Source: a virus (Duplodnaviria; Caudoviricetes). Taken from it: 64,000 nucleotides of DNA. The notes below the pieces were generated by a model that was not told the DNA's origin, ran no database searches, and was given only the letters and a program-made list of their open reading frames with translations. Of the stretch, positions 21,461 to 42,036 are shown piece by piece. Within the stretch, counting starts at the first letter, position 1. Every line of letters starts with the position of its first letter. The position numbers and the translations under genes were made by a program. The stretch spans positions 1-64,000 of the IMG/VR virus record IMGVR_UViG_3300034053_000029. The stretch is one strand, 5' to 3'.

Positions 21461-21510
21461 ATTATAATCGAATCCAAAACTTTGTCAATCTCTTTCGTAA
21501 CTCATTGATC
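21461..21510 (-). promoter_or_regulatory. Early promoter with near-IHF box
   Basis: TTGACA-16-TATAAT; GATCAATGAGTTA. Confidence 0.7.
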
Positions 21511-21792
21511 CATAGGGTATTTTCCAGAATGTGTCAGGACAAACAACATAGCATCTTGATCAAATTTGAATCGGTAGATCAGATGCAATATGGCACCACG
21601 ATGTATTGTTGTAGTCTTGTAACTCGGTATCTCTGGTTTGTGATACCGATCCCAAAATCTACCACGGATACTGATTCGATCTTCACACCATTGATCGAGT
21701 ATAGGAGTTACGGTTGGCATCCATCCACCTATTTGATTATTAGCGTCTATGTGCGTCCAGTTATCAAAATAATCGCTTATATTTTTAGTCAA
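21502..21792 (-). CDS. LKW-family small protein
   Basis: FKFDQDAMLFVLTHS. Confidence 0.65.
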   Translation of the reverse strand: MTKNISDYFDNWTHIDANNQIGGWMPTVTPILDQWCEDRISIRGRFWDRYHKPEIPSYKTTTIHRGAILHLIYRFKFDQDAMLFVLTHSGKYPMDQ

Positions 21793-22067
21793 AATTTTAA
21801 TGCAACCATCAAATACACTTCCTGAGAAACAAACATTCGCATTCTACCCAATCCCCATGCCCAATCTTCGTGTTCTGTGAAGGTCTCTTGTATGTAATCG
21901 AAGACACGATCTGATGCTTCCAGAACTACTAATTTCCTACCGAATAATTCAGTTTCATGAATTGATTGATATGGTTTCGGTGGGTCTGGATCAACACCAC
22001 GCAATAGTGCATCGACTTCCTCTTGTGATAGTGTCATTAAATCTTCCATCCAATCTTCTTCTTTCAT
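21789..22067 (-). CDS. LKW-family small protein
   Basis: VSQEVYLMVALKF. Confidence 0.65.
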   Translation of the reverse strand: MKEEDWMEDLMTLSQEEVDALLRGVDPDPPKPYQSIHETELFGRKLVVLEASDRVFDYIQETFTEHEDWAWGLGRMRMFVSQEVYLMVALKF

Positions 22068-22288
22068 TCAACTTGAACCGAGTTGCCAAACTTGAGTCGC
22101 ATTAGCATTGCAATATCATCCGGAACATCACTAAATTTACCTGATGGATGTCTTTCAGGATATTGTGGATCATAAACTGCAGTATAAAACATATGTTCAA
22201 ACCTGAACAATACATTATGAGAAGTCAAAAACTCTTTCATTTGGGCAATTTCTTCGTATGCTTTGGGATATATTTTGATATCTTTCAT
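22064..22288 (-). CDS. LKW-family small protein
   Basis: VPDDIAMLMRLKFG. Confidence 0.65.
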   Translation of the reverse strand: MKDIKIYPKAYEEIAQMKEFLTSHNVLFRFEHMFYTAVYDPQYPERHPSGKFSDVPDDIAMLMRLKFGNSVQVE

Positions 22289-22500
22289 TACATATACTTC
22301 ATCATAAGATACGCAGCAGATTCTGGATTTTCGACGTATGCAAACCGATTATCACCGAATAAAAATACACGATCTGGATTGTAAAATCTCCCTAGTAAAT
22401 CTTCTTGCAAGAAGTCAACGTGCGAAATCCTGCATTTACCATTGACATATGTAGGAACTTTTGTCCACTTCAATCCAAACTTTTTATTAACGTGTTTCAT
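22288..22500 (-). CDS. LKW-family small protein
   Basis: ENPESAAYLMMKYM. Confidence 0.65.
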   Translation of the reverse strand: MKHVNKKFGLKWTKVPTYVNGKCRISHVDFLQEDLLGRFYNPDRVFLFGDNRFAYVENPESAAYLMMKYM

Positions 22501-22501
22501 T

Positions 22502-22681
22502 TTAACTCCATTTCATAGAGAACATCACCGCATCTTGTTCACTAGCAAATATGTATTTACGCATAGCACCTGATTCATACAAGACAGTAAAGGATGTTAT
22601 GTCATAAGGAATTTCGTTTTCCTTCAACCATTGTAACTGTCCATCACGAAGTTTTACTGTTACGACATATTCCATCTTCAT
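22502..22681 (-). CDS. LKW-family small protein
   Basis: FASEQDAVMFSMKWS. Confidence 0.75.
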   Translation of the reverse strand: MKMEYVVTVKLRDGQLQWLKENEIPYDITSFTVLYESGAMRKYIFASEQDAVMFSMKWS

Positions 22682-22929
22682 CCCCACTTCAATGCAAACA
22701 AAACAGCATCTTCTTCACGCTTGAAGTAAAAAGTACAGTATTCATAAATCCAATTGTTGCCGAACTGTTCTTCACACCAATCTCGAACTTCGGTTGCAGA
22801 TGCTAACCGAAACTCACATTTAACAGGATTCATTCGTACTTTATCGAAACTACGAAAACCATGATCCGCATCTTCGCCTGACATAGCGAAATATTTGTCT
22901 TTCATCGAACTGTATTCAAATTTTTTCAT
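22678..22929 (-). CDS. LKW-family small protein
   Basis: WCEEQFG...FKREEDAVLFALKWG. Confidence 0.8.
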   Translation of the reverse strand: MKKFEYSSMKDKYFAMSGEDADHGFRSFDKVRMNPVKCEFRLASATEVRDWCEEQFGNNWIYEYCTFYFKREEDAVLFALKWG

Positions 22930-23165
22930 GACCACTTCAATAGGAACATCACAACTTGTTCTTCCGTCTTCACTTGTATCTCACCCCAATTTAGATTTTT
23001 CAAGTTTCTTGTGTCTGGTGTGGATGTTTCCTTGAACCAATTATATATGGCAGAAGTGTCTTCACTATTCAAAGCAGGAAATGCGATAGTGTACCATAAC
23101 TGCTCTTGCCATGTATCCGACCGCCAACAAATTTCCTCATACCAATGTATATTTTTAATCTTCAT
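22926..23165 (-). CDS. LKW-family small protein
   Basis: VKTEEQVVMFLLKWS. Confidence 0.75.
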   Translation of the reverse strand: MKIKNIHWYEEICWRSDTWQEQLWYTIAFPALNSEDTSAIYNWFKETSTPDTRNLKNLNWGEIQVKTEEQVVMFLLKWS

Positions 23166-23410
23166 GAGTATCTCATTATAAACATAACTTCGTCTTCTGG
23201 ATTGTCGAACACAACCTCATCAAGTACGGTTGGTTGATCCTCTGGTTCTAATACTTGATTGTCAAAATATCGATACACCACCTTACATTTGAATCTCTCT
23301 TCAAATTTCCACCTGATGCGTTCCTCTGACCAACATTCCTTTTTTGCTTTTGGTATCTCTTTCGCTAAGGCATTCCTAACGATATAATTATTGGATGATG
23401 TTATCTTCAT
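23162..23410 (-). CDS. LKW-family small protein
   Basis: FDNPEDEVMFIMRYS. Confidence 0.75.
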   Translation of the reverse strand: MKITSSNNYIVRNALAKEIPKAKKECWSEERIRWKFEERFKCKVVYRYFDNQVLEPEDQPTVLDEVVFDNPEDEVMFIMRYS

Positions 23411-23622
23411 GACCACTTCAATATGAATAATAGTTCATCTTCTTTTGTATGAAACTCAATCATTGTTGCTATGTTCAATTCATCGTGTAGTTTTATTTTA
23501 CAATTATACGCAGTTTCAAATCGTTCTACAATAACAGATTCTGGTGTGGTCTCACCAAGAGCAGTTGCTGCTTTCCTGATCATGTGCCTTGTGGATTCGT
23601 TGATAGGGAACATTTTTATCAT
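23407..23622 (-). CDS. LKW-family small protein
   Basis: FHTKEDELLFILKWS. Confidence 0.75.
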   Translation of the reverse strand: MIKMFPINESTRHMIRKAATALGETTPESVIVERFETAYNCKIKLHDELNIATMIEFHTKEDELLFILKWS

Positions 23623-23876
23623 CGGAATTTCAACTCAATGAGCATCCTCTGCTCTTCAGTAATCATTGCGTCACAAACATAATCGTCACCAAACTCGTTG
23701 CCTTCGTGTGGGTCAGTGCAATACAACATATCATCGGTTGGGTATGTTTCTCTTAGAAATTTTACAATGTCTTTTGGTTCAATAAAACCCCATCGTGCAC
23801 TATGATGACCCCAAGTATGGAGAGCATACCTGCCATGATATATTTTACTCTTATGAACTGACCAACCCATTCTCAA
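23619..23876 (-). CDS. LKW-family small protein
   Basis: ITEEQRMLIELKFR. Confidence 0.65.
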   Translation of the reverse strand: MRMGWSVHKSKIYHGRYALHTWGHHSARWGFIEPKDIVKFLRETYPTDDMLYCTDPHEGNEFGDDYVCDAMITEEQRMLIELKFR

Positions 23877-24195
23877 TATCCTTTAACCGTTGTTTCAGTA
23901 ACTGTTCACCAAGATGTGCAGCAGGATAATACGACGAAGACTCTTTTTTGTCAAGACCATGCTTCATTAGCATATACAGTTTGAGTTGTTCGAGCATATC
24001 AAATAATGCTTCATCTTTTGTTGCATAATTGAGCATTCTCTCGAAGTCCATCATACTCAACTCAACAATGTTGTCTCGTCTTGTATGACTCATAGCCATC
24101 GTTCCATTATGATTCAAACAATGACGATTTGTTGAGATCGAATATCCTCTGTCTATCCAATACTGCACATCAAGTTTTTCTTGTGGTATTGGCAT
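23851..24195 (-). CDS. Small protein with C-terminal LEQ.KL.Y helix family motif
   Basis: ATKDEALFDMLEQLKLYMLMK. Confidence 0.6.
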   Translation of the reverse strand: MPIPQEKLDVQYWIDRGYSISTNRHCLNHNGTMAMSHTRRDNIVELSMMDFERMLNYATKDEALFDMLEQLKLYMLMKHGLDKKESSSYYPAAHLGEQLLKQRLKDIENGLVSS

Positions 24196-24395
24196 TATCC
24201 GTATTGCACCTCTTCAACAGCATTATAAAATTGAGTAGTCTTTTCTAAAGTAAATGTCGTTCCGTTGTATGTTATTTCATTAGGCCATTCGTCTATAACA
24301 ACTTTATTCCCATCGATGACAGATACAATCGTGTTATCGTCTTGCCTCCGACCAACTAATGTAAATCCTGCTAAAAATTCTTTGAAGTGCTCCAC
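24195..24395 (-). CDS. Hypothetical protein
   Basis: Tightly packed ORF. Confidence 0.55.
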   Translation of the reverse strand: MEHFKEFLAGFTLVGRRQDDNTIVSVIDGNKVVIDEWPNEITYNGTTFTLEKTTQFYNAVEEVQYG

Positions 24396-24400
24396 GATGT

Positions 24401-25642
24401 TTATCCTGTGTATCTCACTGTGTTATTCCCAAATCGAATATGGATTTCGTAAATTCCCATCGCCGAGTTTATTTCTTTGTTTGTGTATTCGGTCGTTTGC
24501 CTATTGAAATACCCACTACGACCAGAATCCTTCATTGTATATTTGAAATGGATTTTTGACTTATCTACTGTTGCCTCTAATCCCATATGCGGGGCACCGT
24601 CTCTCACACTTCGTTCTTTGGTGTAGTATGTCACTCCATCAACATCCTTGCACATATATGGTAGGTAACTATATCCATTCTGATGCTTCTCAATTTGGTT
24701 TACTTTGACTAACTTGATGTTGATTTCGTCCGCTGATTTGAGTTTAGTCGCAGATATACCATATAGACTATATTCTCCGGTAATACCGTCACCTTCTGAC
24801 AACCACTGATTTGCAGTGACAGCAATCTCTTCTTTTGTTAGCGGAACATCAATTCGTTTCTCGATGTTGATAACCTTAGGTGACGAAGAAATTGTAAAAT
24901 AACCATCGGTATTCTTAAACAAATACATCTCTTTTTGCACACCAAAACTCAAACCAGTTGCTGCATAATTACCCATTCCGTCCATATACATAAAGAACAT
25001 TTTACCCAAATATTGTGCAGTGAGCATTTTACCGCCTGTCATAACATCAACAGTGTCGCCAAGTTTCACATCTTTAAGACTAATCTTGTTCTTCAACTTT
25101 GTAGTGACAACGACTGCGGATTGATATGGTTCACTATCTTCGGCAAGCAAAACATTATTTGATCCGTCCCTCGCCCACGCACATTTGCCTTGAATAACAC
25201 CATTGATTAGTGTTCCACTCGCAACAAGTTTAGCGAAATTCTCTGATCGAATTTCAAGATCAAATCCACGAGGATCGGTAATACGCCAAGTCACATTGCC
25301 GCTACCACTCCATCCACTACGACGAACCGACTTAGCAATTTGGAATCCATCTATTGGTTCATTTTTGAGAATGCGAGGATAACAATTTGTCATAAAGATG
25401 GTGGCAGCATCCAATGATTTACTATATGAATTGCTGCTACCAGATGCGGTTACATTATCGTCTTCATCGATGTGAATCTTTATGCCACGACCATACGCCC
25501 AACTGTCTTGGGTTTCTTTACGCTTCTCAAATGCTGCGTCCTTAGTGTATGGAGACATGAATCCAAGTAGTCCATCTTCGTTTGATGAATCGTCACGGTA
25601 TTGTAGAGTTACATAGATTTTATCAGGTACTGTAGTTGCCAT
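24401..25642 (-). CDS. Conserved hypothetical phage protein
   Basis: 413 aa; WRITDPRGFDLEI.SEN. Confidence 0.75.
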   Translation of the reverse strand: MATTVPDKIYVTLQYRDDSSNEDGLLGFMSPYTKDAAFEKRKETQDSWAYGRGIKIHIDEDDNVTASGSSNSYSKSLDAATIFMTNCYPRILKNEPIDGFQIAKSVRRSGWSGSGNVTWRITDPRGFDLEIRSENFAKLVASGTLINGVIQGKCAWARDGSNNVLLAEDSEPYQSAVVVTTKLKNKISLKDVKLGDTVDVMTGGKMLTAQYLGKMFFMYMDGMGNYAATGLSFGVQKEMYLFKNTDGYFTISSSPKVINIEKRIDVPLTKEEIAVTANQWLSEGDGITGEYSLYGISATKLKSADEINIKLVKVNQIEKHQNGYSYLPYMCKDVDGVTYYTKERSVRDGAPHMGLEATVDKSKIHFKYTMKDSGRSGYFNRQTTEYTNKEINSAMGIYEIHIRFGNNTVRYTG

Positions 25643-26037: not shown

Positions 26038-26038
26038 C

Positions 26039-26329: not shown

Positions 26330-26333
26330 TAGG

Positions 26334-26546
26334 TCATCCCCACTTCAATTGAATATATGTTGCAGTATCTTCGTGAACCCAAAAATTGAATGTGCCGAAT
26401 CTTGGGTTAGATGGTTGGAATCGATCAATCTTGTTCTCGTTCATCCACCTATGAATTTCAACATACAAATCTGGAACAGATTTATCAACCACGACTTCGA
26501 TTGGATATTCAAAACACTTATTATGTCTAACGATTAACTTTGTCAT
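26334..26546 (-). CDS. LKW-family small protein
   Basis: VHEDTATYIQLKWG. Confidence 0.7.
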   Translation of the reverse strand: MTKLIVRHNKCFEYPIEVVVDKSVPDLYVEIHRWMNENKIDRFQPSNPRFGTFNFWVHEDTATYIQLKWG

Positions 26547-26758
26547 TTCCATCTCAACAAGAAAAACGCCACCCATTCTTCTCTAATATACAATCCACTC
26601 CCTGCTATTGTAACAGGAATATTGTTTTCATGCAACCAGTCTTTGATGTTCTCTCTAACAACAAGGTCAGTTGGTAGTTCGATTCGGTGCGTATATGGAT
26701 ACCGTTGAGATGATGTTGCGTATAAATGAGTTACACCAAGCGGAAGACGGTTTAACAT
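26543..26758 (-). CDS. LKW-family small protein
   Basis: IREEWVAFFLLRWK. Confidence 0.7.
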   Translation of the reverse strand: MLNRLPLGVTHLYATSSQRYPYTHRIELPTDLVVRENIKDWLHENNIPVTIAGSGLYIREEWVAFFLLRWK

Positions 26759-26976
26759 TATGCCCACCTCAACAAAAACATAAGCTCGCTCTCTTCGTCG
26801 GTGAATTCGATTCGCACTTTGTCTATGTCCGAAACACCAATGCCAATGGGTACATTGACGCCTTGATCCATCAACCATTTTGTGTAGCGTCGGTGATCAT
26901 AAGTGCTAAGTCTACCTGTTTCACTATAATAACCAGCCACAGCATTTTGCAAATATGGGAGTCTTGGTAAACTCAT
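26758..26976 (-). CDS. LKW-family small protein
   Basis: FTDEESELMFLLRWA. Confidence 0.75.
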   Translation of the reverse strand: MSLPRLPYLQNAVAGYYSETGRLSTYDHRRYTKWLMDQGVNVPIGIGVSDIDKVRIEFTDEESELMFLLRWA

Positions 26977-27227
26977 TATGCCCACCTCAACATAAACAAT
27001 GTTAAATCTTCTTCGGACTGAAAGTAAATATCGTTCCAACAAGGATACCACTTAGAGTTTTTGTGTTCGCCTGTTAGTGCAGGTTCGCCGTATGTTTCAG
27101 TGCACCAGGCGAATAATTCTGGCGCCTGCTCATCTAATCTAAATAACCCAAGAGTTTTCAGTCTGACACGGTGGGACCAAACAGTGTTGGTTTGATCAGT
27201 CTCATCAAAATATTTTACTTCGACCAT
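26976..27227 (-). CDS. LKW-family small protein
   Basis: WCTETYG...FQSEEDLTLFMLRWA. Confidence 0.8.
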   Translation of the reverse strand: MVEVKYFDETDQTNTVWSHRVRLKTLGLFRLDEQAPELFAWCTETYGEPALTGEHKNSKWYPCWNDIYFQSEEDLTLFMLRWA

Positions 27228-27415
27228 TATACCCACCTCAACGCAAACAAAACAGCGTCAGACTCTTTATCAAACTCGATCATACGATTTGCTTCGCCAG
27301 TTTTCCAACTGGTCCAATCGTGACCACCATAATGATTGCCTTCGCAGTTTTCATTACACCAATGAAACAGTGTATGATAATCTTTGTCATCGGAATATCG
27401 AACTTTGAAGAACAT
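27227..27415 (-). CDS. LKW-family small protein
   Basis: FDKESDAVLFALRWV. Confidence 0.8.
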   Translation of the reverse strand: MFFKVRYSDDKDYHTLFHWCNENCEGNHYGGHDWTSWKTGEANRMIEFDKESDAVLFALRWV

Positions 27416-27424
27416 TGTATATCC

Positions 27425-27727
27425 TCATTTCCATTTTAGCATCAACAAACTCGCCATTTCTTCTGGCACCAAAAACACAGACTCAAACCACAAATACCAC
27501 TCATACGTTTCTTTTGGGAATGACTCGTTCATCCATTTTAATTCTGTACCAAAAACATCAACTGGGTAATGAGTTGGATAATTTTTATGACATTCACTAT
27601 GCCCATTGATCATTCTAAAATGCCCTTTTCCTTTGTCACCATATCCTATCAACCAATTGTAGTGCTTCTCTAATTCTTCTTGCGATTCTTCAAGGTTAGA
27701 AGCAGACCTAAAATTGATAACTGTCAT
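27425..27727 (-). CDS. LKW-family small protein
   Basis: VPEEMASLLMLKWK. Confidence 0.7.
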   Translation of the reverse strand: MTVINFRSASNLEESQEELEKHYNWLIGYGDKGKGHFRMINGHSECHKNYPTHYPVDVFGTELKWMNESFPKETYEWYLWFESVFLVPEEMASLLMLKWK

Positions 27728-27966
27728 TATTTCCATCTCAACGCAAACATCATCGCATCTTCTTCTCTGGCGAATGAATACAACGGATGACCGTCTCTAC
27801 CACGACCAAAATTATTTACCATGTATCTAGCATGTCCGTCTTGAATACAATTACCAATATTGGCCTTCAACCATTTTTGGACTTCACCATATTCTCCATC
27901 TTTTCCATATGATTCAATGGACAACGACACATTATATCGCTTGCTTCTCGGTTTTCTCTGTTTCAT
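27727..27966 (-). CDS. LKW-family small protein
   Basis: FAREEDAMMFALRWK. Confidence 0.8.
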   Translation of the reverse strand: MKQRKPRSKRYNVSLSIESYGKDGEYGEVQKWLKANIGNCIQDGHARYMVNNFGRGRDGHPLYSFAREEDAMMFALRWK

Positions 27967-28214
27967 ACCATCAACCTCGCTAAAATCATGTCCTCTTCTC
28001 GTTTGAAATATATCCTGACTGTTGATTCGTATGGTTTGAAGTTCACCACTACCCACATTTCATACGGTGATGACTCATAACATATTGGTGGTTCTTTGTG
28101 TCCTTTCGGTGACTTGAACCGTTCTTTGAGTTTCTTTATTTTTATAAATGGATTTAGTGACGAATCGAACAACCTCGGTTCGTTATGCCCTAATTCAAAC
28201 CAGTATGGAGTCAT
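27963..28214 (-). CDS. LKW-family small protein
   Basis: FKREEDMILARLMV. Confidence 0.65.
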   Translation of the reverse strand: MTPYWFELGHNEPRLFDSSLNPFIKIKKLKERFKSPKGHKEPPICYESSPYEMWVVVNFKPYESTVRIYFKREEDMILARLMV

Positions 28215-29058: not shown

Positions 29059-29110
29059 ATTATACTCTAGTAGTTATGGGAGTGTCAACCAATTTTGTAA
29101 GTTGTTGATT
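29059..29110 (-). promoter_or_regulatory. Early promoter with IHF box
   Basis: TTGACA-18-TATAAT; AATCAACAACTTA. Confidence 0.75.
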
Positions 29111-29500
29111 CTATGAAAATTTTAGCGTGATCATGAAGGCATCTTCTTCGGAATCTGTACCAACAAAGACACAATCGCAGTCTCCAAGACCGTTTATATG
29201 AAATTCACCATTTAACCAGACACCACGCTCAAAAAGATATATTCCTTTACCTAACCCCATATAGGGCAACGCCTCGTCGCTTAGTTCCCATGCCCTCGTA
29301 TTTGCAGTATTGAACCATTTTTTATAATCTACGCAGATGACATATTTGAACTTTAAGCAATCTGTTATTTTGATTCCACTTGGTTTGTACTTTGTGATTC
29401 GCCATCTTTCATAACGAATTTGTTCAATAGAATTTCCTGTTGCCTTTGAAAGCAACCAATCCTTGAAGTGTCGACTTACACTAGCCCACTTTTCTTTCAT
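29111..29500 (-). CDS. LKW-family protein
   Basis: DSEEDAFMITLKFS. Confidence 0.7.
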   Translation of the reverse strand: MKEKWASVSRHFKDWLLSKATGNSIEQIRYERWRITKYKPSGIKITDCLKFKYVICVDYKKWFNTANTRAWELSDEALPYMGLGKGIYLFERGVWLNGEFHINGLGDCDCVFVGTDSEEDAFMITLKFS

Positions 29501-29808
29501 GTCCATTTTAGTAGCAACATCAGTAAGTTTTCTTCTTGGAATCCGAGTATTTCTGCTCTATGATTTACCGTTCTCACATAGCAACCTTGCTCGAATAACC
29601 AAGAGTCGAATTGTAGTCGTTTGTGTCCTTTAGATGGAACGTCGACCAAGTGAGTTTCCCACACTCGTCGCCCATTGTCAGTTTGAATATGATCATTACA
29701 CCATCTATTCCAAATGCGATCTGCAACAGTTAGTTCTCTTCTCACTTTCATCTTCTCCAATGCTGATCTTGATCTAAACGATCCTATGTTTATCTTTTTC
29801 TTGGTCAT
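29497..29808 (-). CDS. LKW-family small protein
   Basis: FQEENLLMLLLKWT. Confidence 0.7.
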   Translation of the reverse strand: MTKKKINIGSFRSRSALEKMKVRRELTVADRIWNRWCNDHIQTDNGRRVWETHLVDVPSKGHKRLQFDSWLFEQGCYVRTVNHRAEILGFQEENLLMLLLKWT

Positions 29809-30086
29809 GCGAATTTCAATACAAACATCATAATAGTTTCCTCCGGAACATCATCACTAAATTCTATGTGTGCTGAATAATCATCATATGCAGTTTTGTT
29901 GATTGCCCACTTATCATTTATTGATCTTCGATACTCACCATCTAACGTAGGTGCTGCTTCCTCTATATTATCTTCCAACCATGCAATAATCCTGTAGTTT
30001 CGCCACCGATCCTTTTTTGCCGTGAATCGTAGTGGTTCAACATCTTCAAGGGCGACATTACCCCAACACCATTCTACCGTTCTCAT
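29805..30086 (-). CDS. LKW-family small protein
   Basis: VPEETIMMFVLKFA. Confidence 0.7.
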   Translation of the reverse strand: MRTVEWCWGNVALEDVEPLRFTAKKDRWRNYRIIAWLEDNIEEAAPTLDGEYRRSINDKWAINKTAYDDYSAHIEFSDDVPEETIMMFVLKFA

Positions 30087-30268
30087 GACCACTTCAAAGC
30101 GAACAGAATCGCTTCTTCCTCTTTGTGAAACTGGTATAGCACTCTAGGATTGTTTGTGTCCATAACTTGAGTGTATGGTATATAACCGAAAGATTCTAAT
30201 GCCCAACCCATTCGAGACATTCTTTCACTCATGTTTTCTTTGAAAGGAACATAAACGTCATAACTCAT
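30083..30268 (-). CDS. LKW-family small protein
   Basis: FHKEEEAILFALKWS. Confidence 0.8.
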   Translation of the reverse strand: MSYDVYVPFKENMSERMSRMGWALESFGYIPYTQVMDTNNPRVLYQFHKEEEAILFALKWS

Positions 30269-30477
30269 AACCATTTCAATGAGAACATCATTGCCTTCTG
30301 ATCGTCATATATGAATATAGTCGAGAGAGTGAATCCCGAAGAATATTTACCTTCCCATACAGGAATCGTACCGTTCATTTGATCACCGAGATGTTCCACA
30401 CACCAAATAAGAACATCCTTATTTTCAACGTGCTGCTTTTGACATATTTCCCACACTGAAAATTGGTTAATTCCCAT
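30265..30477 (-). CDS. LKW-family small protein
   Basis: WCVEHLG...YDDQKAMMFSLKWL. Confidence 0.75.
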   Translation of the reverse strand: MGINQFSVWEICQKQHVENKDVLIWCVEHLGDQMNGTIPVWEGKYSSGFTLSTIFIYDDQKAMMFSLKWL

Positions 30478-30682
30478 TTACCCACCCCAATACAAACATC
30501 ATTTCCTCTTGAGTATCATCCTCATCGAAAATGACTTCTAATACTTCGTCGTTATTGAGTGAGAAATCAGATACGTCTGTTAGGTAACAAGCGACTTTGT
30601 TTTTGGTACACCAATCGATTGCACCCTTCAAGTCACTATTTCCGTCGCCTAAGTAATATTTCTTTTTGCTCATCCTCATCAT
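30467..30682 (-). CDS. LKW-family small protein
   Basis: DTQEEMMFVLGWV. Confidence 0.65.
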   Translation of the reverse strand: MMRMSKKKYYLGDGNSDLKGAIDWCTKNKVACYLTDVSDFSLNNDEVLEVIFDEDDTQEEMMFVLGWVNGN

Positions 30683-30906
30683 CCCCACTTCAAAACGAAT
30701 AGCATGAACTGCTGTTCATCGTTGAAATCAATATTTACTTCAGTTGCCCACTTATTCCAAATTATCGTTGCGTCATATTCTTTGAGTAGTTTTCTGACCG
30801 TCTGCCAGAATTCACTCTCGACACTTCGACTGTACTTGTATACTATATTCTTCCACCATTGCGGCGAAGTGCTGAGTGTAGTAATTGTAAAGTGTATCAC
30901 ATCCAT
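30679..30906 (-). CDS. LKW-family small protein
   Basis: FNDEQQFMLFVLKWG. Confidence 0.75.
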   Translation of the reverse strand: MDVIHFTITTLSTSPQWWKNIVYKYSRSVESEFWQTVRKLLKEYDATIIWNKWATEVNIDFNDEQQFMLFVLKWG

Positions 30907-31112
30907 CTCATTATAAACAATACCTTCGTTTCTTCGTCAGGGAACGTGATAGTCGCTCCTTCGACGATAACATTGTGGCTATCCAACCATTCGGAGAGTC
31001 CACCTTTCTCGTAACAATCTAACCACTTTCTGACTCCACCCTGTGTTACAAACCCAATTAATGTTGAGTGCCAAGGAACAACACCGTTTTCTGTAAAAGG
31101 AAATGTTATCAT
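30897..31112 (-). CDS. LKW-family small protein
   Basis: FPDEETKVLFIMRWM. Confidence 0.75.
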   Translation of the reverse strand: MITFPFTENGVVPWHSTLIGFVTQGGVRKWLDCYEKGGLSEWLDSHNVIVEGATITFPDEETKVLFIMRWM

Positions 31113-31279
31113 GTGAATTTCATCAAAATGAATACGCCAATTTCTTCACTGACCATCAACTTGTATCCTTCTCTCCAATACCAAGTTCCCATAGACGGTT
31201 CTGGATAGTTATCATTCAGAAATTCGATGATATTCTCAAACACATAATTGGGGAGTTCTTCGTAGTCGATCTCGTACAT
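31109..31279 (-). CDS. LKW-family small protein (56 aa, not in ORF track)
   Basis: MYEIDYEELP...VSEEIGVFILMKFT. Confidence 0.7.
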   Translation of the reverse strand: MYEIDYEELPNYVFENIIEFLNDNYPEPSMGTWYWREGYKLMVSEEIGVFILMKFT

Positions 31280-31280
31280 T

Positions 31281-31562
31281 TTATGCCCACTTCAATAAGA
31301 ACATCAGCATGTTTTCTTCAGAAGAAAAAACTATATATTTGTAGTTATTCATACCTAAAGTATCTACAACTGCTCTAAGAATCTTGCTATTATCTTCATC
31401 AATGATTTTCCCACCAAACCGATCCAACTCATCATCGAACGCTCTTCTCATTGATGCGAAAACAAATAAGTTCAAATTTTTGTTTATGAAGTTTGCTCTG
31501 ATAGCATCGTATGTTGATGAACACCAATGGATCGTGTTAGTCGATGAATTCATTTCCCTCAC
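31281..31562 (-). CDS. LKW-family small protein
   Basis: FSSEENMLMFLLKWA. Confidence 0.75.
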   Translation of the reverse strand: MREMNSSTNTIHWCSSTYDAIRANFINKNLNLFVFASMRRAFDDELDRFGGKIIDEDNSKILRAVVDTLGMNNYKYIVFSSEENMLMFLLKWA

Positions 31563-31746
31563 CTCCCCACTTCATCAGAAACATCACATACTCTTCTTTG
31601 GTCATTTTGAATGAATACTTCTCTGCTTCTTTTCCTACTTCACACTCAATACACCACGTTCTCATCTCATCCAGAAACACGCAGACGATGTATATTGTCT
31701 GGTTCGTATCGGGGTCGATGAATCTCATTTTTGTGTATAACATCAT
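31537..31746 (-). CDS. LKW-family small protein
   Basis: MTKEEYVMFLMKWGG. Confidence 0.7.
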   Translation of the reverse strand: MMLYTKMRFIDPDTNQTIYIVCVFLDEMRTWCIECEVGKEAEKYSFKMTKEEYVMFLMKWGGEGNEFID

Positions 31747-32057
31747 GCCCACTTCATTGTAAATAGAATAGCATCTTCCTTTGTGTTGAAACCCCACCAC
31801 TCTTCTTTTTTCGCAGAGTTGCTCATATAGCACAGAGGAAGTTTACTCAAATTGTTTTGACACCATTGCCAAAATGTGGGCGATGTGCTATTCAATCTAA
31901 CACCACGAATGAACACTTTGGTTAGGTAGAATGTTGGAACCCAACCGTCCCGTTTCTCAGGAATCCAAAGTGGGCAGTCATCTGCCGTTATATCCATTTT
32001 CCATCCACCATCATTGATGACGGTGTTAGCGTACTCGATAAATTCTTGTCGGTTCAT
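31743..32057 (-). CDS. LKW-family small protein
   Basis: FNTKEDAILFTMKWA. Confidence 0.8.
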   Translation of the reverse strand: MNRQEFIEYANTVINDGGWKMDITADDCPLWIPEKRDGWVPTFYLTKVFIRGVRLNSTSPTFWQWCQNNLSKLPLCYMSNSAKKEEWWGFNTKEDAILFTMKWA

Positions 32058-32302
32058 GAGTGTTTTAGTAAGTAAAATGCTAGTTTATCTGGATCGTCTG
32101 AGGCAATGAATATATCCCAACAACCATCTTCCTCTTCTATTATACAATAGTTACTGCCAAGAGGCAACGGAAAAAGTTCCCATAGTAGTTGGTACATAAA
32201 ATTATTTGTTTCATCATCATAAACGTATGAACCAATTGCCTCTCTCATATACCACACAATTTTTCTTGGGCATTTAAGTTCTGTAATCATACCTTTTTCC
32301 AA
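32054..32302 (-). CDS. LKW-family small protein
   Basis: DDPDKLAFYLLKHS. Confidence 0.6.
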   Translation of the reverse strand: MEKGMITELKCPRKIVWYMREAIGSYVYDDETNNFMYQLLWELFPLPLGSNYCIIEEEDGCWDIFIASDDPDKLAFYLLKHS

Positions 32303-32573
32303 ATTTTAATAAGAACAACATAGCGTGTTCATCTGGCAATTCAAACGAAATGATTGATCTGATTTCCCATGATGTATGATCTTGAAAATAGTCGAATGTT
32401 GGTTGGCACTCTTGCGGCATTTCTTGCTCGTTCATCCAATCGAACATTGGTTTAAGAATGTCCTTATGCCATTTCATTATTGTTTTGTGTTTACCATATT
32501 TGTCAGCAGAATCCCACTCTGGTTGCGACAAGTAAAAATCGTCCATAGGTGGGAGTGCGTACCTGACTTTCAC
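32274..32573 (-). CDS. LKW-family small protein
   Basis: LPDEHAMLFLLKFG. Confidence 0.7.
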   Translation of the reverse strand: MKVRYALPPMDDFYLSQPEWDSADKYGKHKTIMKWHKDILKPMFDWMNEQEMPQECQPTFDYFQDHTSWEIRSIISFELPDEHAMLFLLKFGKRYDYRT

Positions 32574-36303: not shown

Positions 36304-36344
36304 CGATGAGTGAATTATAAACGAACCAATCTAGAAGTCAACAA
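36304..36344 (-). promoter_or_regulatory. Early promoter, 41 nt identical to 13878-13918
   Basis: TTGACT-16-TATAAT exact duplicate. Confidence 0.8.
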
Positions 36345-36346
36345 CT

Positions 36347-36703
36347 TTAGTAACTCTTTGATTTCTTTACGATATTTCGTTGCTTTTCCCATACCCACCC
36401 AGTTGCTCGTTGGGTGTTATTGTATGAGGTTTGATCTTCGCTCCAAGTTTTCTTGCAATCTAGACACTTGAATTCGTACCAATACGAATCTGTGTGGGGA
36501 TCATAGTTGCCAGTGTTAGCACAAGCGGTTTGCTCTACGTTCATATGGGTACAATACCTCTCCTGGGTCGGTGTTGCTATCGGCGTTGGGTGATCCTTTT
36601 CGTACCTTATTAAGAGAGAATACAACCAGTGAGTATCAACTCCAGAGGTTGGGTAGTTCATATTGAACCAATCTTCAAAATTATCGTAGTCCATTTTATT
36701 CAT
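36347..36703 (-). CDS. Hypothetical protein
   Basis: C.H...CLDC.K.W. Confidence 0.6.
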   Translation of the reverse strand: MNKMDYDNFEDWFNMNYPTSGVDTHWLYSLLIRYEKDHPTPIATPTQERYCTHMNVEQTACANTGNYDPHTDSYWYEFKCLDCKKTWSEDQTSYNNTQRATGWVWEKQRNIVKKSKSY

Positions 36704-36933
36704 CCAAATTTTAACTTAAACATAATAGCGTCTTGTTCAAACTCAAACCAAAACGATCTTCCGTATTTGTGATATCTGCCGGTTATGATGTTTTCTAATA
36801 GCTCGGCCTCGCTACGACTGAACATCGGAAATGACTTGAAAGGATGACCGAATCTTACCATCGTCCAATCTCGGTCGTGGTTGATGCCAAGAAGGACAAT
36901 GTCCTCTAATGAAACGTGTTTAGTCATTTCCAC
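36700..36933 (-). CDS. LKW-family small protein (dispersed)
   Basis: FEFEQDAIMFKLKFG. Confidence 0.7.
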   Translation of the reverse strand: MEMTKHVSLEDIVLLGINHDRDWTMVRFGHPFKSFPMFSRSEAELLENIITGRYHKYGRSFWFEFEQDAIMFKLKFG

Positions 36934-37090
36934 TTCAACAAGTCAAATAAATTGTCAAAATACACTTTCACAATGTAATGTTTTTCTTGGTCGTCGTATC
37001 GTTCGTATACTGTTTTAGTTTCCTCGGCCCACCACATAAACTCTAATGCTTTGTATTTTGAGGTCAGGTCAACATCGGCAACTAATTTGG

Positions 37091-37282
37091 TCATTTCTTC
37101 TCAACAGGAACACCAACAACTTTACAATGTTGATCCCTTGGCAACGATTTCTCGCATTCAGCAATAGCAGTTTTATATCTACTCACACTTGAATCGGCAA
37201 ATCCAAGTAGTAACATTAGCAAAATGACACCAGTAAACATACCAATGATGAATGCATAGCCATTGCTATTCAACATACCCAA
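37091..37282 (-). CDS. Small membrane protein
   Basis: One TM; AIAECEKSLPRDQHC. Confidence 0.65.
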   Translation of the reverse strand: MGMLNSNGYAFIIGMFTGVILLMLLLGFADSSVSRYKTAIAECEKSLPRDQHCKVVGVPVEKK

Positions 37283-37679: not shown

Positions 37680-37926
37680 CTTTATTGTCCTCGTATTTCC
37701 TTAGAAATCCTTCTTCATACAATCGTTCTTGCAACCAATCGGAATCTTCGCCTTCGTTAATCTCATTGGCACACGCATACCATCCTTCTGCAAAAATGTC
37801 TTTGATCTCTTGTAGAGTAACACCTCTGAGTATCATAAAGCCAGCCCTTTGACCACCAACAAGTGAGGCAGTAAAAGCGTCAAAACTTTCGTCAAGAGTT
37901 CGATGCGATTTCACGGGCAACTCCAT
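37669..37926 (-). CDS. Hypothetical protein
   Basis: ORF track. Confidence 0.55.
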   Translation of the reverse strand: MELPVKSHRTLDESFDAFTASLVGGQRAGFMILRGVTLQEIKDIFAEGWYACANEINEGEDSDWLQERLYEEGFLRKYEDNKDDE

Positions 37927-38745: not shown

Positions 38746-39029
38746 AATTTCACTCCGAAGTGTTCTTTTATCTTACATTCCATTACGCTATAAGGCATCA
38801 TTTTTAGTTGACAATATTCTGCCTGCTCAATTGCTATTGGTATACATTCCTTCACCGCACACTCAAATCCTTCTTGGAATGTTTGCCAATGATCCTCGAC
38901 GGTTGGATTACTATACTCTCCGTTTGGTAAGCGTGGGTAAATCTCTTTGCTGCCATCAAACGAAAGCACTGACAACCCAAAACTAGGTGCCGTGACTTTC
39001 TCAAACAGTTCTCTGATTTTATCGTTCAT
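38742..39029 (-). CDS. MNERI-family small protein with insert
   Basis: MNDKIRELF...AVKEC...IKEHFGVK. Confidence 0.7.
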   Translation of the reverse strand: MNDKIRELFEKVTAPSFGLSVLSFDGSKEIYPRLPNGEYSNPTVEDHWQTFQEGFECAVKECIPIAIEQAEYCQLKMMPYSVMECKIKEHFGVKL

Positions 39030-39394
39030 TTCATTTCCTTCCCAAGTTTGGCAGCAAGTTCAACGATAACACGCCGAGCCGCAGCAAGAGGATCAGTCAC
39101 GCCATCTTGTCTTGCGGAACGATAGTTTGGATCATAACCAACATTGTTCTCAGCACACACCATTCTTGCCTTCACATTATCAAACGCACAATCAACATAT
39201 AGATTCAAGTTCAACTTCACCATTAGTCGGAAAGCATCGCCATCGTCGGTAAGTGGGTCCCATATTCCATTGATAAGGGCATCGAATTCCTCATCAACGC
39301 TGAGTTCGCTATCAGGGTCTGGTAAGTATTCCTTGTAAGTAATGCCCGCTGCTTTTGCTGCCAACTCAAGAAGTTCCCTATCGTTTTCGTTCAT
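39026..39394 (-). CDS. Conserved phage protein (WxPLxDDGDAxRL family)
   Basis: DRELLELAAKAAG...WDPLTDDGDAFRL...AARRVIVELAA. Confidence 0.7.
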   Translation of the reverse strand: MNENDRELLELAAKAAGITYKEYLPDPDSELSVDEEFDALINGIWDPLTDDGDAFRLMVKLNLNLYVDCAFDNVKARMVCAENNVGYDPNYRSARQDGVTDPLAAARRVIVELAAKLGKEMK

Positions 39395-39672
39395 AGTGTT
39401 GACTCCAATTTTGGCACCGCCAAACATCGCATTAGAGCCGCTTCTGCCTCTTGTATTTCTTCGTGGGTGCTTGCACGATCCCATTTAACTATTGCACTTC
39501 GACACTGTTGAGCATACGCATTACATCTGATGAGAGTATTACGAAGATTGTCTGTAAATAGTGCAATGTCTTCTTCCCACTTTCCAGAGTCTGACTTACA
39601 ATCCATTCCGATTGCCTTACAGTGTGAATAAAGCCAGATCAACTCTGGCGGCGGAAGTTTCTTATCGTTCAT
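39391..39672 (-). CDS. Hypothetical protein
   Basis: ELIWLYSHCKAIGMDCKSDSGKWE. Confidence 0.6.
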   Translation of the reverse strand: MNDKKLPPPELIWLYSHCKAIGMDCKSDSGKWEEDIALFTDNLRNTLIRCNAYAQQCRSAIVKWDRASTHEEIQEAEAALMRCLAVPKLESTL

Positions 39673-39673
39673 A

Positions 39674-39919
39674 CTACACTCTCCTGTTCCACTTGTCAAT
39701 CGCTTCTTGCTTAGAATTACCAACCATTTCTACACCACACCCACCTGTAGTTTCGGGGCAATTCATACTGTAGCACCACTGTTCTTTTGGCACATCACGG
39801 AAACTGACAAAATGCCTAAGACCACTTCGCTCACTATATGCCCAACCAACACCACTTGGATATAGTGTATCGGGTTCTTCCATATCAACTTCTTTACCGC
39901 AGAACGGACAAGGTTTCAT
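39674..39919 (-). CDS. Lar-family restriction-alleviation-like Zn-ribbon protein
   Basis: MKPCPFCG...C....GCG...EAIDKWNRR. Confidence 0.75.
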   Translation of the reverse strand: MKPCPFCGKEVDMEEPDTLYPSGVGWAYSERSGLRHFVSFRDVPKEQWCYSMNCPETTGGCGVEMVGNSKQEAIDKWNRRV

Positions 39920-39928
39920 TTATTATCC

Positions 39929-40168
39929 TCAACGATATTTCAATAAAAGCAAAGTGTATTGCTCGTCTGTGAATTCCATTGTTGTCAATGGGCTGTATCT
40001 ATTATACGCAACCGAACCAGCAAATACTGGTACTACATTCCCGCCAAATTCTTCAACTAACGCATCAACGACAGAATTTTTCTTTTCTTGTTTCACTTGT
40101 TCTATCCAATAATCTGCTGCATTCTCTCTAACACGCTGTGGCAAATCATTCCAACTAACACGGATCAT
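39929..40168 (-). CDS. LKW-family small protein (dispersed)
   Basis: FTDEQYTLLLLKYR. Confidence 0.65.
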   Translation of the reverse strand: MIRVSWNDLPQRVRENAADYWIEQVKQEKKNSVVDALVEEFGGNVVPVFAGSVAYNRYSPLTTMEFTDEQYTLLLLKYR

Positions 40169-40365
40169 TATCCAAACCTCAATACAAGCATAGTGGCAGT
40201 TTCTTCGGTTGTGTAGATGACATTATTTCCGCCATCGAGACGACGGATATATCCGATATCTTCCAACCATTCCCAAATCTCGTCCAACTCACGAAGAAAA
40301 GCATTATGAACTTCTACTCTAACGACACTTCCGGTTGGAGGTACTTTGGAAATGTTGAAGTTCAT
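40168..40365 (-). CDS. LKW-family small protein (dispersed)
   Basis: TTEETATMLVLRFG. Confidence 0.65.
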   Translation of the reverse strand: MNFNISKVPPTGSVVRVEVHNAFLRELDEIWEWLEDIGYIRRLDGGNNVIYTTEETATMLVLRFG

Positions 40366-40544
40366 TTTATCAACCCAAAATGATATTTGATTGAACTAAT
40401 AGCATCGTCAATCGCATCTTCCTTTGCTGCCATTCGCTCGTAGTAATCTCGTGACTCGTAGCCGCCAACATCAGCATACGACGCTTTCATATCCTCTAAA
40501 ATCTCCAACACCGTTTCCAAATCTGATTTAACTTTGGTCATCAT
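40362..40544 (-). CDS. Hypothetical protein
   Basis: Ends IKYHFGLIK like MNERI family. Confidence 0.55.
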   Translation of the reverse strand: MMTKVKSDLETVLEILEDMKASYADVGGYESRDYYERMAAKEDAIDDAISSIKYHFGLIK

Positions 40545-40774
40545 TCTACTCCGAAATAGTCCATAATATAGAATGGAAGTTTCTCTGGTTCTTTCTCGAA
40601 AACACCAATCAACCTTGCCGAATTTACAAAACTAGCACACTCTTTGACGATCAACTCTGCGAAATTTTCGGCAAATGTTTTTAGTTCGGTATTATATGAT
40701 ATCTGTTTATTGATATCTTCTTCAGCCATTATCTTTGCCTGAACAGCAAGTGCATTGATTCGCTCGTTCATCAT
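40541..40774 (-). CDS. MNERI-family small protein
   Basis: MNERINALA...FAELIVKEC...YFGVE. Confidence 0.75.
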   Translation of the reverse strand: MMNERINALAVQAKIMAEEDINKQISYNTELKTFAENFAELIVKECASFVNSARLIGVFEKEPEKLPFYIMDYFGVE

Positions 40775-40956
40775 TCTACTATTCCAAAATGTTCATTGAT
40801 GAAGTGTCCTGCCAATGGCTGAAACTTTTTATATGCAACATCAGTACATTCTTTGATAATCAACTCTGCGAATTTCTCCATTCCTGGCTTGCACATATCA
40901 TACACATCAGGATGATATCCAGCCTGTGCCGCAAGTTCTTTGATTCGTTCATTCAT
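40771..40956 (-). CDS. MNERI-family small protein
   Basis: MNERIKELAAQAG...FAELIIKEC...HFGIVE. Confidence 0.75.
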   Translation of the reverse strand: MNERIKELAAQAGYHPDVYDMCKPGMEKFAELIIKECTDVAYKKFQPLAGHFINEHFGIVE

Positions 40957-41121
40957 CTTCGCTTACTCCCGCAATCATTTCATCCATTTCTTCAGCCAAT
41001 TCCGCTAACTCTAATCTCGCAGCAATCCGAGAAGGAATTGAGAAAAAAACATGAGAATCCTCACTGTTTAGTGCTTCCCGCAACCGCAAGTATTCTTCTA
41101 ACACTTCGGAAAATTTACGCA

Positions 41122-41367
41122 TCATTCTACTCCAAAGTGTTCTTCGATTTTACATTTCAAATCCCAGGTAGATATAGTCCGATCTTCTAGCAACTTACAA
41201 TTCTCTTCCTGGACATAACCCACCGCCACTTGAGCGCATTCCTTGACGATCAACTCTGCGAACTTTTTATACATCACCATTGGTTGTGCTACAGTATCTG
41301 TTGGTTCTTCTTCTACTGCTTCTCTTGCTGCCTGTAATAAAAATTCTGCAAGTCGCTCGTTCATCAT
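41122..41367 (-). CDS. MNERI-family small protein
   Basis: MNERLAEF...FAELIVKEC...HFGVE. Confidence 0.75.
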   Translation of the reverse strand: MMNERLAEFLLQAAREAVEEEPTDTVAQPMVMYKKFAELIVKECAQVAVGYVQEENCKLLEDRTISTWDLKCKIEEHFGVE

Positions 41368-41368
41368 T

Positions 41369-41608
41369 CTAACTCCAAGTATATGCGTGATCAATCAGTG
41401 CGTCAATATAATCGAATGCGTAGGACTGGTAGTACCAATCTTTTCCGGCACACGATACCTCATACAAAGAATAAAGGTTGCCATTGCGAACTACTTTTGC
41501 ACCAGACTCGCTAAACCAATTGATATAACATTCTTCACCATCTGCGAGTGCGAGGACTTTTTCTTTGTCTTGTTGCTTATTTGGCATTTCGTTGCTCCGT
41601 TTCGTCAT
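41369..41608 (-). CDS. Hypothetical early protein
   Basis: After promoter; GGAG RBS favours MPNKQ start. Confidence 0.6.
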   Translation of the reverse strand: MTKRSNEMPNKQQDKEKVLALADGEECYINWFSESGAKVVRNGNLYSLYEVSCAGKDWYYQSYAFDYIDALIDHAYTWS

Positions 41609-41619
41609 TCGATGAACAA

Positions 41620-41669
41620 ATTATAGCATACCCAAACCAAAAATCAACAACTTTGGTAAGTCGTTGATT
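41620..41669 (-). promoter_or_regulatory. Early promoter with IHF box and extended -10
   Basis: TTGATT-16-TATAAT (TG at -15/-14); AATCAACGACTTA. Confidence 0.75.
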
Positions 41670-41857
41670 CATAACCACTTTAAAGTGAAAAGTGTCGCAT
41701 CCTCTTCATTTTGAAACACTATCTCATCGTAGGAATCAATGTACCAGTTAGTATGATGCGGTTGCCCAAAATGCTCGATACACCACGCCCAAAATCTAGG
41801 CAAGTTTCCCACATAATCAAACCGAGTAGCAGCAGGAACTTTGACTTTTACAACCAT
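41669..41857 (-). CDS. LKW-family small protein (dispersed)
   Basis: WCIEHFG...FQNEEDATLFTLKWL. Confidence 0.8.
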   Translation of the reverse strand: MVVKVKVPAATRFDYVGNLPRFWAWCIEHFGQPHHTNWYIDSYDEIVFQNEEDATLFTLKWL

Positions 41858-42036
41858 TTCATTGCAAACAGAATAGCGTCTGCTTCCTTGTCGAAAAAAT
41901 AATCGATCATAGTTTTATCGTAAGTGTAATATCCGTCTTGATGTAAGTCATTAGTGATATAGCTCTTACAGTTCTTTCTCGCCCAAGTCAATGCCTCCCA
42001 AGTCGGATCGTAAGGTAGAGTAACATGAATACTCAC
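41848..42036 (-). CDS. LKW-family small protein (dispersed)
   Basis: FDKEADAILFAMKWL. Confidence 0.8.
   Translation of the reverse strand: MSIHVTLPYDPTWEALTWARKNCKSYITNDLHQDGYYTYDKTMIDYFFDKEADAILFAMKWL

Follow-up and report, generated by a model that had tools for sequence, protein, structure and literature searches.

Tandem arrays of a small phage protein family in a T4-like phage genome and their turnover as whole-gene cassettes

What are the dozens of very small genes, with products ending in F-x-L-(K/R)-W, that stand in tandem in a large phage genome, and what might they do for the phage? The question arises from a 64,000-nt stretch (the window) of IMG/VR virus record IMGVR_UViG_3300034053_000029, which represents the first 64 kb of a 210,171-bp single-contig phage genome with direct terminal repeats that was rated complete. 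The genome is T4-like as indicated by a Gp23 match (E 2.5e-135); gp23 is located at approximately 129 kb, and the capsid protein is closest to that of Pelagibacter phage HTVC008M (62%), followed by those of Methylophilales phage Melnitz and cyanomyoviruses. An earlier note on the window had described paralogous mini-proteins in three tandem arrays and had proposed a common fold or docking helix with hypervariable surfaces, expanded by gene accordion. In this study, the genes were found to encode a phage-restricted mini-domain of approximately 60 residues that was previously uncurated.

Family genes in the window

Listing of the open reading frames (ORFs) in the 15-43.5 kb interval revealed that small genes on the minus strand follow one another in long series, their products ending in hydrophobic-x-L-K/R-W/F, usually plus one residue. 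A strict form of this tail, placed no more than 3 residues from the stop, was found in 28 minus-strand ORFs of the window versus 0 plus-strand ORFs. In an iterated hidden Markov model (HMM) search of all 1,585 ORFs of the genome, 33 genuine significant members and a few weaker in-array ORFs were obtained, and the recruited members were all within 16978-42036; a plus-strand ORF (5571-5732) was also recruited and was judged to be spurious. A profile made only from external sequences (120 homologues from other phages, each <60% identical to any protein of this genome) detected 25 members when E<1e-3 was required and 30 when the limit was E<0.5; genome-wide, the top-scoring ORF not belonging to the arrays had E=0.26. 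Six-frame profile search of the genome gave 27 matches, all located in 22288-41860.

A total of 39 family genes were identified, all on the minus strand, and consisted of arrays of 10, 8, and 14 genes plus 7 dispersed genes, two of these being weak. The array boundaries, array counts, and dispersed copies given in the earlier note were therefore correct. As assigned from ORFs and HMM, array 1 (21502..23876) contains genes 21502, 21789, 22064, 22288, 22502, 22678, 22926, 23162, 23407, and 23619; array 2 (26334..28214) contains genes 26334, 26543, 26758, 26976, 27227, 27425, 27727, and 27963; and array 3 (29111..32573) contains genes 29111, 29497, 29805, 30083, 30265, 30467, 30679, 30897, 31109, 31281, 31537, 31743, 32054, and 32274. 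The in-array members 21502, 23619, 27963, and 32054 were weak by profile, yet 27963 has an orthologue at 87% identity. Orthologues of four array 1 genes (23619, 23407, 23162, and 22926) were present at 82-96% identity in the related contigs L039 and L040.

The dispersed members included one at 36700..36933 (external profile E 1.9e-7), two adjacent ones at 39929..40365 (39929-40168 and 40168-40365, by HMM), and two adjacent ones at 41669..42036 (41669-41857 and 41848-42036, external profile E 2e-17 and 1e-11). Gene 41669 is the most consensus-like copy, and orthologues of 41669 and 41848 were found at 71% and 77% in contig L038. The gene at 16978..17247, which the earlier note had listed as a possible copy, has a 27-residue C-terminal extension past the motif (…VFVLMKFKG…); it was recruited by HMM iteration and missed by the external-only profile, and its membership is accepted with moderate confidence. 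A weak candidate at 36924..37094 was assigned by its motif (ending …LFDLLKWK), its best BLAST match to a member having E 0.03.

When starts supported by Shine-Dalgarno (SD) sequences were used, the 39 products ranged from 56 to 131 amino acids (aa) with a median of 79 and summed to 3,094 residues, corresponding to approximately 9.3 kb or 4.4% of the genome, in agreement with the coding length of over 9 kb noted earlier. Several of the maximal ORFs were too long: internal ATGs with GAGGT at -7 shorten 26543, 26758, 26976, and 27727 to 71, 72, 83, and 79 aa, respectively. Three ORFs with LKW/LKY-like endings (28195-28812, 32570-32947, and 32862-33191) were recruited by no profile and were not counted. 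Outside the window, a 77-aa minus-strand ORF (75656-75889) ending in …EENAFILLLLKYS resembles an isolated member, with a profile E of only about 1-7.

Sequence conservation and predicted fold

Alignment of 20 compact members displayed a strand at the N-terminus, a helix whose Trp is nearly invariant (W-C/L-x-E-x-x-G), a second, aromatic strand, a strand ending in Phe, and an E-E-D-A-x-L-F-x-L-K/R-W helix. In an alignment of 133 sequences, including external homologues, W19, F48, F57, L59, and W61 were nearly invariant and the remainder was highly variable; the helix motif W(C/L)xExxG recognized in the earlier note appeared as the consensus WCxExxG, with its Trp nearly invariant. No catalytic-type residues were conserved. 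Judging from residue type, the conserved aromatic and hydrophobic positions, comprising the WCxExxG Trp, a Phe of strand 3, and the F, L, and W of the terminal helix, fit a structural core, while the loops, surface positions, and N-terminal extensions vary freely among members, which bears out the hypervariable surfaces proposed earlier.

Two members were modelled with AlphaFold2. The model of 41669-41857, made with the 20-sequence alignment, had a predicted local distance difference test (pLDDT) score of 78.8, and that of 27227-27415, made with the 133-sequence alignment, had a pLDDT of 96.2 and a predicted template modelling (pTM) score of 0.80. The latter is a two-layer beta-alpha-beta-beta-alpha sandwich arranged as strand(3-6)-helix(13-23)-strand(28-32)-strand(44-48)-helix(51-61). 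The strand-helix order agrees between the models; the 41669 model has a KH-like beta-alpha-alpha-beta-beta-alpha order, and in the 27227 model the first helix is single and continuous. The members thus belong to one homologous family, both modelled members sharing a compact fold, as the note had anticipated. Its alternative suggestion of a docking helix was not upheld: in the 27227-27415 model the C-terminal motif is the second helix of the fold (pLDDT >90), and homology spans the whole domain, leaving no free peptide. Prediction of a two-copy complex (homodimer) with the 133-sequence alignment scored 0.00, which speaks neither for nor against self-association.

No characterized or housekeeping family was matched. 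Ten window members and all 133 sequences gave no match in PHROGs v4, and in Pfam no family was hit in more than one member, with all E>1e-3; PADLOC had no match to the family, and the best E among PDB sequences was 0.28. Structure searches with both models returned generic small alpha/beta sandwiches (KH, RRM, ACT, EF-G domains, and secretin N-domains), and these matches were weak (Foldseek E >0.26; VIA Z <=5.9, with the best Z for unmatched models being typically 7-8). The best viral and ESM-Atlas structural neighbours were uncharacterized proteins of uncultured Caudovirales at 20-30% identity, which are most likely members of the family.

The sandwich matches raise the possibility that the proteins are KH/RRM/ACT-like regulators binding RNA or single-stranded DNA, for example in control of translation or mRNA stability, with many paralogues for many targets. 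KH, RRM, and ACT domains were the best structural neighbours (Z 5.0-5.9, root-mean-square deviation 2.1-3.3 over 52-61 residues), the 41669 model has the KH-like order, and a precedent exists in the zinc ribbons of Bacillus phage G, which have been proposed to be transcription factors or DNA binders (PMC7824862). However, these Z values, including those of the KH alignments (5.0-5.9), lie within the noise range, and the model of higher confidence has a single first helix. The KH-defining GXXG loop is absent from the consensus of the 133 sequences, in which the only conserved Gly is that of WCxExxG, after the helix, and in which no basic patch is conserved. Furthermore, 30 of the 39 members are acidic and five are basic (median isoelectric point 5.4, range 4.05-9.9). 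Regulation through nucleic acids is therefore regarded as improbable. The acidity is only moderate, which, together with the five basic members, speaks against the idea that the proteins mimic DNA.

Distribution in other phages

An exhaustive profile search against 1.84 billion cluster representatives yielded 518 clusters at E<=1e-3. Nearly all were 55-110 aa in length with the match ending at the C-terminus and had the consensus WCxENxG…F-x-x-E-E-D-A-x-L-F-x-L-K/R-W. Two domains in tandem were found in P0017, P0021, P0067, P0073, P0087, and P0127, and a search for longer fused forms found none; the long matches P0004 and P0013 were spurious, being a eukaryotic AIG1 GTPase repeat protein and a fungal CBM protein. 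A word-indexed homologue search gave 5 matches, one of them under the misleading source name 'metal-binding transcription factor'. Scanning IMG/VR with a single member found nothing. A look-up of sequencing runs containing the array likewise yielded none, RNA runs included.

Every metagenomic contig fetched contained a tandem array. At least 7 copies were present in L002, at least 11 in L010 (beside rIIB and ribonucleotide reductase genes), at least 8 within 3.8 kb in L012, at least 6 within 1.4 kb in L013, and at least 9, seven of them clustered, in a 353-kb IMG/VR phage.

Among cultured phages, the 469-kb Sinorhizobium phage Phosso (PV764938.1) gave 39 six-frame matches, of which approximately 38 were verified as ORFs, all annotated as hypothetical. 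They are clustered at 3-14, 95-100, 113-117, 175-177, 348-349, and 369-370 kb and end in …D-A-M-L-F-K-L-R-W-x, a Lys at the x of F-x-L (…AMLFKLRW…) being the signature of this lineage. Agrobacterium phage Atu_ph07 has 4 members. In tblastn of two members against cultured phages, one gave a marginal match (Phosso, E 0.07) and the other none, so that Phosso is firm only by profile; near-identical DNA of the arrays was sought in INPHARED with no match. No member was detected in nine cultured phages (HTVC008M, Melnitz, Mosig, S-SKS1, S-SRM01, T4, KVP40, phiRSL1, and phiM12) with profiles identical to those giving 27 copies in the home genome. The first five of these are the closest cultured relatives. 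As far as seen, the family is phage-restricted, patchy, and repeatedly expanded in large genomes.

Gene junctions and cassette turnover

Twenty-two of the 39 members end in NNA-TGA, so that the next ATG is made up from the final sense codon together with the stop, and seven further members have TAATG/TGATG overlaps. Combined, stop/start overlaps were present at 29 of the 39 genes (74%), as compared with 24% ATGA overlaps among the long genes of the genome, and the family genes are predicted from these overlapping codons to be translationally coupled. It is largely because stop and start overlap that exactly one residue follows the Trp. In a subset ending in …TTG-AGG-TGG-GNA-TAATG, the R-W codons make a GAGGTG Shine-Dalgarno sequence 6-7 nt before the next start, and the arginines of the motif are specified by AGR codons in 9 of 9 cases versus 54% genome-wide. 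Such dual coding holds for only part of the family, because the spacing at ATGA-type junctions is too short for Shine-Dalgarno use.

The paralogues are old and divergent, with a maximum pairwise identity of 40% over at least 40 residues; 47 of 741 pairs were significant in BLAST, and the best match was the adjacent gene for 6 of the 39. When the window members were pooled with those of Phosso and four metagenomic arrays, 14 of the 39 had their best match in their own genome, which equals the chance expectation (0.37). Phosso was moderately lineage-enriched (20 of 35 versus 0.33 expected). Based on the low identity, the non-adjacent best matches, and the chance level of own-genome matches, the arrays are not a recent amplification of one gene, and their diversity is either of ancient origin or a product of exchange among phages.

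Contig L001 carries orthologues of six neighbouring array 3 genes, with gene order preserved, at 54-90% identity. For these six pairs, the ratio of nonsynonymous to synonymous substitution rates (dN/dS) was 0.10-0.22 where dS was unsaturated, and 0.16 when pooled, which argues that each copy is maintained by purifying selection.

Contig L039, with approximately 85% nucleotide identity to the window, allowed gene content to be compared between close relatives. The order in L039 was 28195'-27963'-27727'-26334'-25642'-(extra member)-24401'-23851'-(extra member)-23619'-23407'-23162'. It lacks five members (27425, 27227, 26976, 26758, and 26543) and two non-family genes (26039 and 24195), and holds two members missing from the window, one of which is also in L040. 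Several single cassettes also differ between the window and L039/L040. The five-gene block that is present here and absent from L039 (26546..27728, minus strand) was delimited by blastn, protein mapping, base-level alignment, and shared junction k-mers. It is bounded by an identical 14-mer, GTTGAGATGGAAAT, at 27729-27742 (end of 27727) and 26545-26558 (end of 26543), which represents the L-R-W-K codons plus the first base of the stop codon. At the base level, L039 tracks the 27727 gene to its final codons and then enters the 26334 gene. Exact junction strings of 13-19 nt are common to different members. Because the breakpoints carry the identical 14-mer and paralogues share exact junction strings, these results are direct evidence that array content turns over as whole-gene cassettes by unequal recombination at the conserved 3' junction. 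The earlier proposal of a gene accordion was thus right in that copy number differs between close relatives by junction recombination, and wrong in so far as it implied recent amplification (identity no higher than 40%; adjacent best match in 6 of 39).

Turnover of this kind could also be expected of selfish or near-neutral cassettes, for which the junction, with its stop/start overlap and SD-like K/R-W codons, would permit insertion and expression in any array without benefit to the phage. Gain and loss of cassettes between relatives at the conserved junction, the 13-19-nt strings shared by paralogues, the patchy distribution with memberless closest cultured relatives, and the finding that window paralogues are no nearer each other than to the copies of other phages are all in line with this explanation. 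Against it, the protein is under purifying selection (dN/dS approximately 0.16), and its motif is kept as far off as Phosso, whose junction arrangement differs. In addition, neutral DNA would be expensive at approximately 4.4% of a genome whose size is limited by packaging, and the cassettes are not accompanied by any nuclease or recombinase. We consider it improbable that the cassettes are selfish or near-neutral.

Promoters of the arrays

Twenty-nine sigma-70 sites matching the consensus at 11 or more of 12 positions were found in the whole genome, all on the minus strand, whereas about 9 were expected on both strands by shuffling. Many strong sigma-70-type promoters carry a 22-nt box, AATCAAnnACTTACGAAAgTTG, immediately upstream of the -35 hexamer. 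The box occurs 7 times in the window versus 0.1 expected, on the minus strand at 12624, 13916, 29089, 36342, 41648, 47489, and 52595. From their sequence, the boxed promoters look like an extended class of early promoters, in which the box may be a UP-like element or a factor-binding site.

On the minus strand, a sigma-70-type promoter, TTGACA-17-TATTAT (11/12; 23954), lies at 23926..23954 directly upstream of array 1. A promoter at 29059..29110, consisting of the box AATCAACAACTTACAAAATTGG and TTGACA-18-TATAAT (12/12; 29088), immediately follows the stop codon of the final array 3 gene and stands at the head of the unit to which array 2 belongs. No consensus promoter belongs to array 3 itself; going upstream from it and from an RNA ligase gene, the first strong promoter is the boxed TTGACT-16-TATAAT (36341) at 36314..36363, from which array 3 is presumably transcribed by read-through. 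A further boxed promoter, TTGATT-16-TATAAT (41647), at 41620..41669, starts at the stop codon of member 41669. No array was headed by the late-promoter motif TATAAATA; its only minus-strand occurrence near family genes (19985-19992) is downstream of array 1 and heads no family gene.

This arrangement bears on a possible role in the virion or its assembly, with members interacting with the capsid protein or chaperones, or being packaged and injected. Such a role is suggested by an N-terminal peptide of approximately 30 residues (…IIRKVMPQVIAE…QPM…) that is present on some members in other phages and matches the start of the Gp23 major-capsid profile (first 30-50 profile positions). It is carried by P0048 (E 3.6e-6), P0081 (E 4e-4), and the L012 gene 1349-1741, and in the atlas cluster with the nearest Pfam label, Gp23 was on 13% of the members. 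However, the peptide is found on no window member, the genome's only VQPM motif being in gp23 itself; the arrays are behind sigma-70-type early promoters with no late promoter and are far from the structural module (gp23 at approximately 129 kb). A virion or assembly role is regarded as most unlikely.

Genomic context and possible function

Genes with counter-defence or RNA-repair functions were found beside the family, all on the minus strand. A Lar-like restriction-alleviation gene (39674..39919; PF14354, 32.8 bits versus the cut-off of 28.6, E 8.4e-8; phrog_599) is situated 10 nt downstream of member 39929. The region also encodes an RlaP-family nucleotidyltransferase with a HAD_SAK_2 domain (Swiss-Army-Knife HAD, phosphatase-like; 17238-18694) and an Rnl1-type RNA ligase (34531-35652) that is 36% identical to that of Pseudomonas phage phiPMW. 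RNA-repair functions are generally read as a counter to host anticodon nucleases (PMC7824862).

The early promoters together with the neighbouring Lar and RNA-repair genes hint at host takeover or counter-defence. We tentatively propose, as the likeliest reading of this context and with some reserve, that the proteins are a library of non-enzymatic binders serving one of these ends. The binders would be produced early in infection, and each copy, through its variable surface, would bind its own host target or variant of a target and in this way inhibit or redirect it. The rigid core would be kept while the surfaces diversify, and array composition could be shuffled to match the hosts encountered.

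A narrower form of the proposal, which we hold to be unlikely though worth stating, is that of inhibitors built on a single scaffold: one rigid mini-domain would provide dozens of specificities, each against a different host defence effector or toxin, and copies would be swapped among unrelated large phages as junction-based plug-in cassettes. The junction would then offer homology for recombination, couple translation, and in part of the copies provide the ribosome-binding site as well. If true, the arrays would correspond, on the side of counter-defence, to the defence islands or immunity-gene arrays of bacteria.

The targets might instead belong to other phages, the proteins being inhibitors of the superinfection-exclusion or immunity type that act on nucleases or toxins encoded by co-infecting phages and homing elements. 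Homing endonucleases are numerous in the genome (for example, the HNH gene at 20020-20910), and the arrays, with their small divergent alpha+beta proteins, are reminiscent of the immunity genes in polymorphic-toxin loci. Nevertheless, the members have no toxin or nuclease gene as a partner, and neither sequence nor fold was found to connect them with known immunity families; competition between phages is given a very low probability.

Several observations weigh against a library of host-directed binders. The closest cultured relatives are memberless, indicating that the family is dispensable for a T4-like life cycle, which fits an accessory role and also neutral cargo. No non-family gene was conserved beside the arrays of different phages. 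The gene-wide dN/dS of approximately 0.16 carries no arms-race signature, these being two-sequence comparisons over whole genes. The capsid-like N-terminal peptide of some homologues hints at another role, perhaps as a mimic of the capsid arm or as a signal for targeting. Early timing of the array operons is deduced from promoter sequence and the analogy with T4, and, with two members modelled, a shared fold of the most divergent copies is suggested by profile homology.

Other genes in the region

A 413-aa gene between arrays 1 and 2 (24401-25642, minus strand) matches PHROGs of unknown function (phrog_30990 and 6266, E approximately 1e-29). Its homologues, at 50-52%, are in IMG/VR contigs of 104 and 353 kb (L006, L007, and L008) with no family member within 10 kb. 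Genes of 300-400 aa that interrupt the arrays of different phages were considered as a conserved neighbour and found not to be homologous. Also between the arrays is a gene for a 131-aa Cys-rich protein (25642-26037, minus strand; C-x-C…C-x-x-C, possibly zinc binding), with a counterpart at 84% in L039 and no family match.

Two other sets of small paralogues were observed. A second family of at least seven small proteins, starting with MNERIKELA… and ending in …(E)HFG(V/I)(K/E), is encoded on the minus strand at 18901-19639, 38742-39029, 40541-40956, and 41122-41394, with dispersed genes of the main family in between; three copies were scanned with no Pfam or PHROG match. Three adjacent minus-strand paralogues of 95, 96, and 77 aa at 42033-42774 have …TIQMIIGY… near the start and a …(K/I)PYK ending, and scanning of two copies likewise gave no Pfam or PHROG match.

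Significance and comparison with known systems

Large phages carry hundreds of small early genes without known function. Here, 39 anonymous early genes (4.4% of the genome) are reduced to one confidently modelled domain, and a block of ORFans becomes a defined family with a testable hypothesis. The domain is also available in cultured systems, namely Phosso (approximately 38 copies; with S. meliloti as host, a genetically accessible system) and Atu_ph07 (4 copies; Agrobacterium). If members bind diverse host proteins, they would represent a new class of takeover or anti-defence factors as well as a natural small binding scaffold. Cassette exchange at stop/start junctions, for which the evidence is at the base level, provides a concrete mechanism for the remodelling of T4-like plastic regions.

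No description of the family was found in Pfam, PHROGs, PADLOC, PDB, or the papers searched on expanded small-protein families of T4-like and jumbo phages. Both plastic early regions and the large-scale expansion of a small domain are themselves known phenomena. The nearest precedent is the lineage-specific expansion of approximately 35 zinc-ribbon copies in Bacillus phage G (Iyer et al. 2021, PMC7824862). In both cases, a single large genome carries the same very small domain dozens of times over, and diversified binding has been proposed for it. Unlike the zinc ribbons, the present domain is a metal-free alpha/beta sandwich, its paralogues are shared across phages rather than being lineage-specific, and it is expanded in at least two unrelated large phages and arrayed in many phages known from metagenomes.

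T4-like phages reportedly possess plastic (hyperplastic) regions of small early genes, as attributed to Comeau and colleagues in 2007 and Miller and colleagues in 2003. The arrays are similar in being clusters of small non-core genes with early promoters, located between core modules and variable among relatives. These regions consist mostly of unrelated ORFans, whereas here one homologous domain fills three arrays, and T4 and KVP40 are without a member. The gene accordion of poxviruses, with amplification of K3L, is said to have been described by Elde and colleagues in 2012. Tandem copy number there changes by unequal recombination within a viral genome, as it does here, and the accordion genes belong to a host-interaction class; however, poxvirus copies are transient and near-identical, while those in the present arrays are no more than 40% identical, individually conserved, and syntenic in relatives.

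In the polymorphic-toxin loci of bacteria, small immunity proteins encoded in tandem arrays were reportedly recognized by Zhang, Iyer, and Aravind in 2011-2012. They share with the present family small, divergent, non-enzymatic alpha+beta proteins with a conserved core, variable surfaces, and gain and loss of cassettes; they differ in that the family is phage-encoded behind early-type promoters and has no cognate toxin genes and no match in sequence or fold. Type I KH, ACT, RRM, and secretin N-domains are similar in size and perhaps in strand-helix order, with a best Z of 5-6 in the noise range, but the family has no GXXG loop and no sequence similarity to them, and most members are acidic. 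Finally, C-terminal docking tails, such as the clamp-binding tails of T4, are exposed unstructured peptides on otherwise unrelated proteins, whereas the tail of this family is helix 2 of the fold and homology extends over the whole domain.

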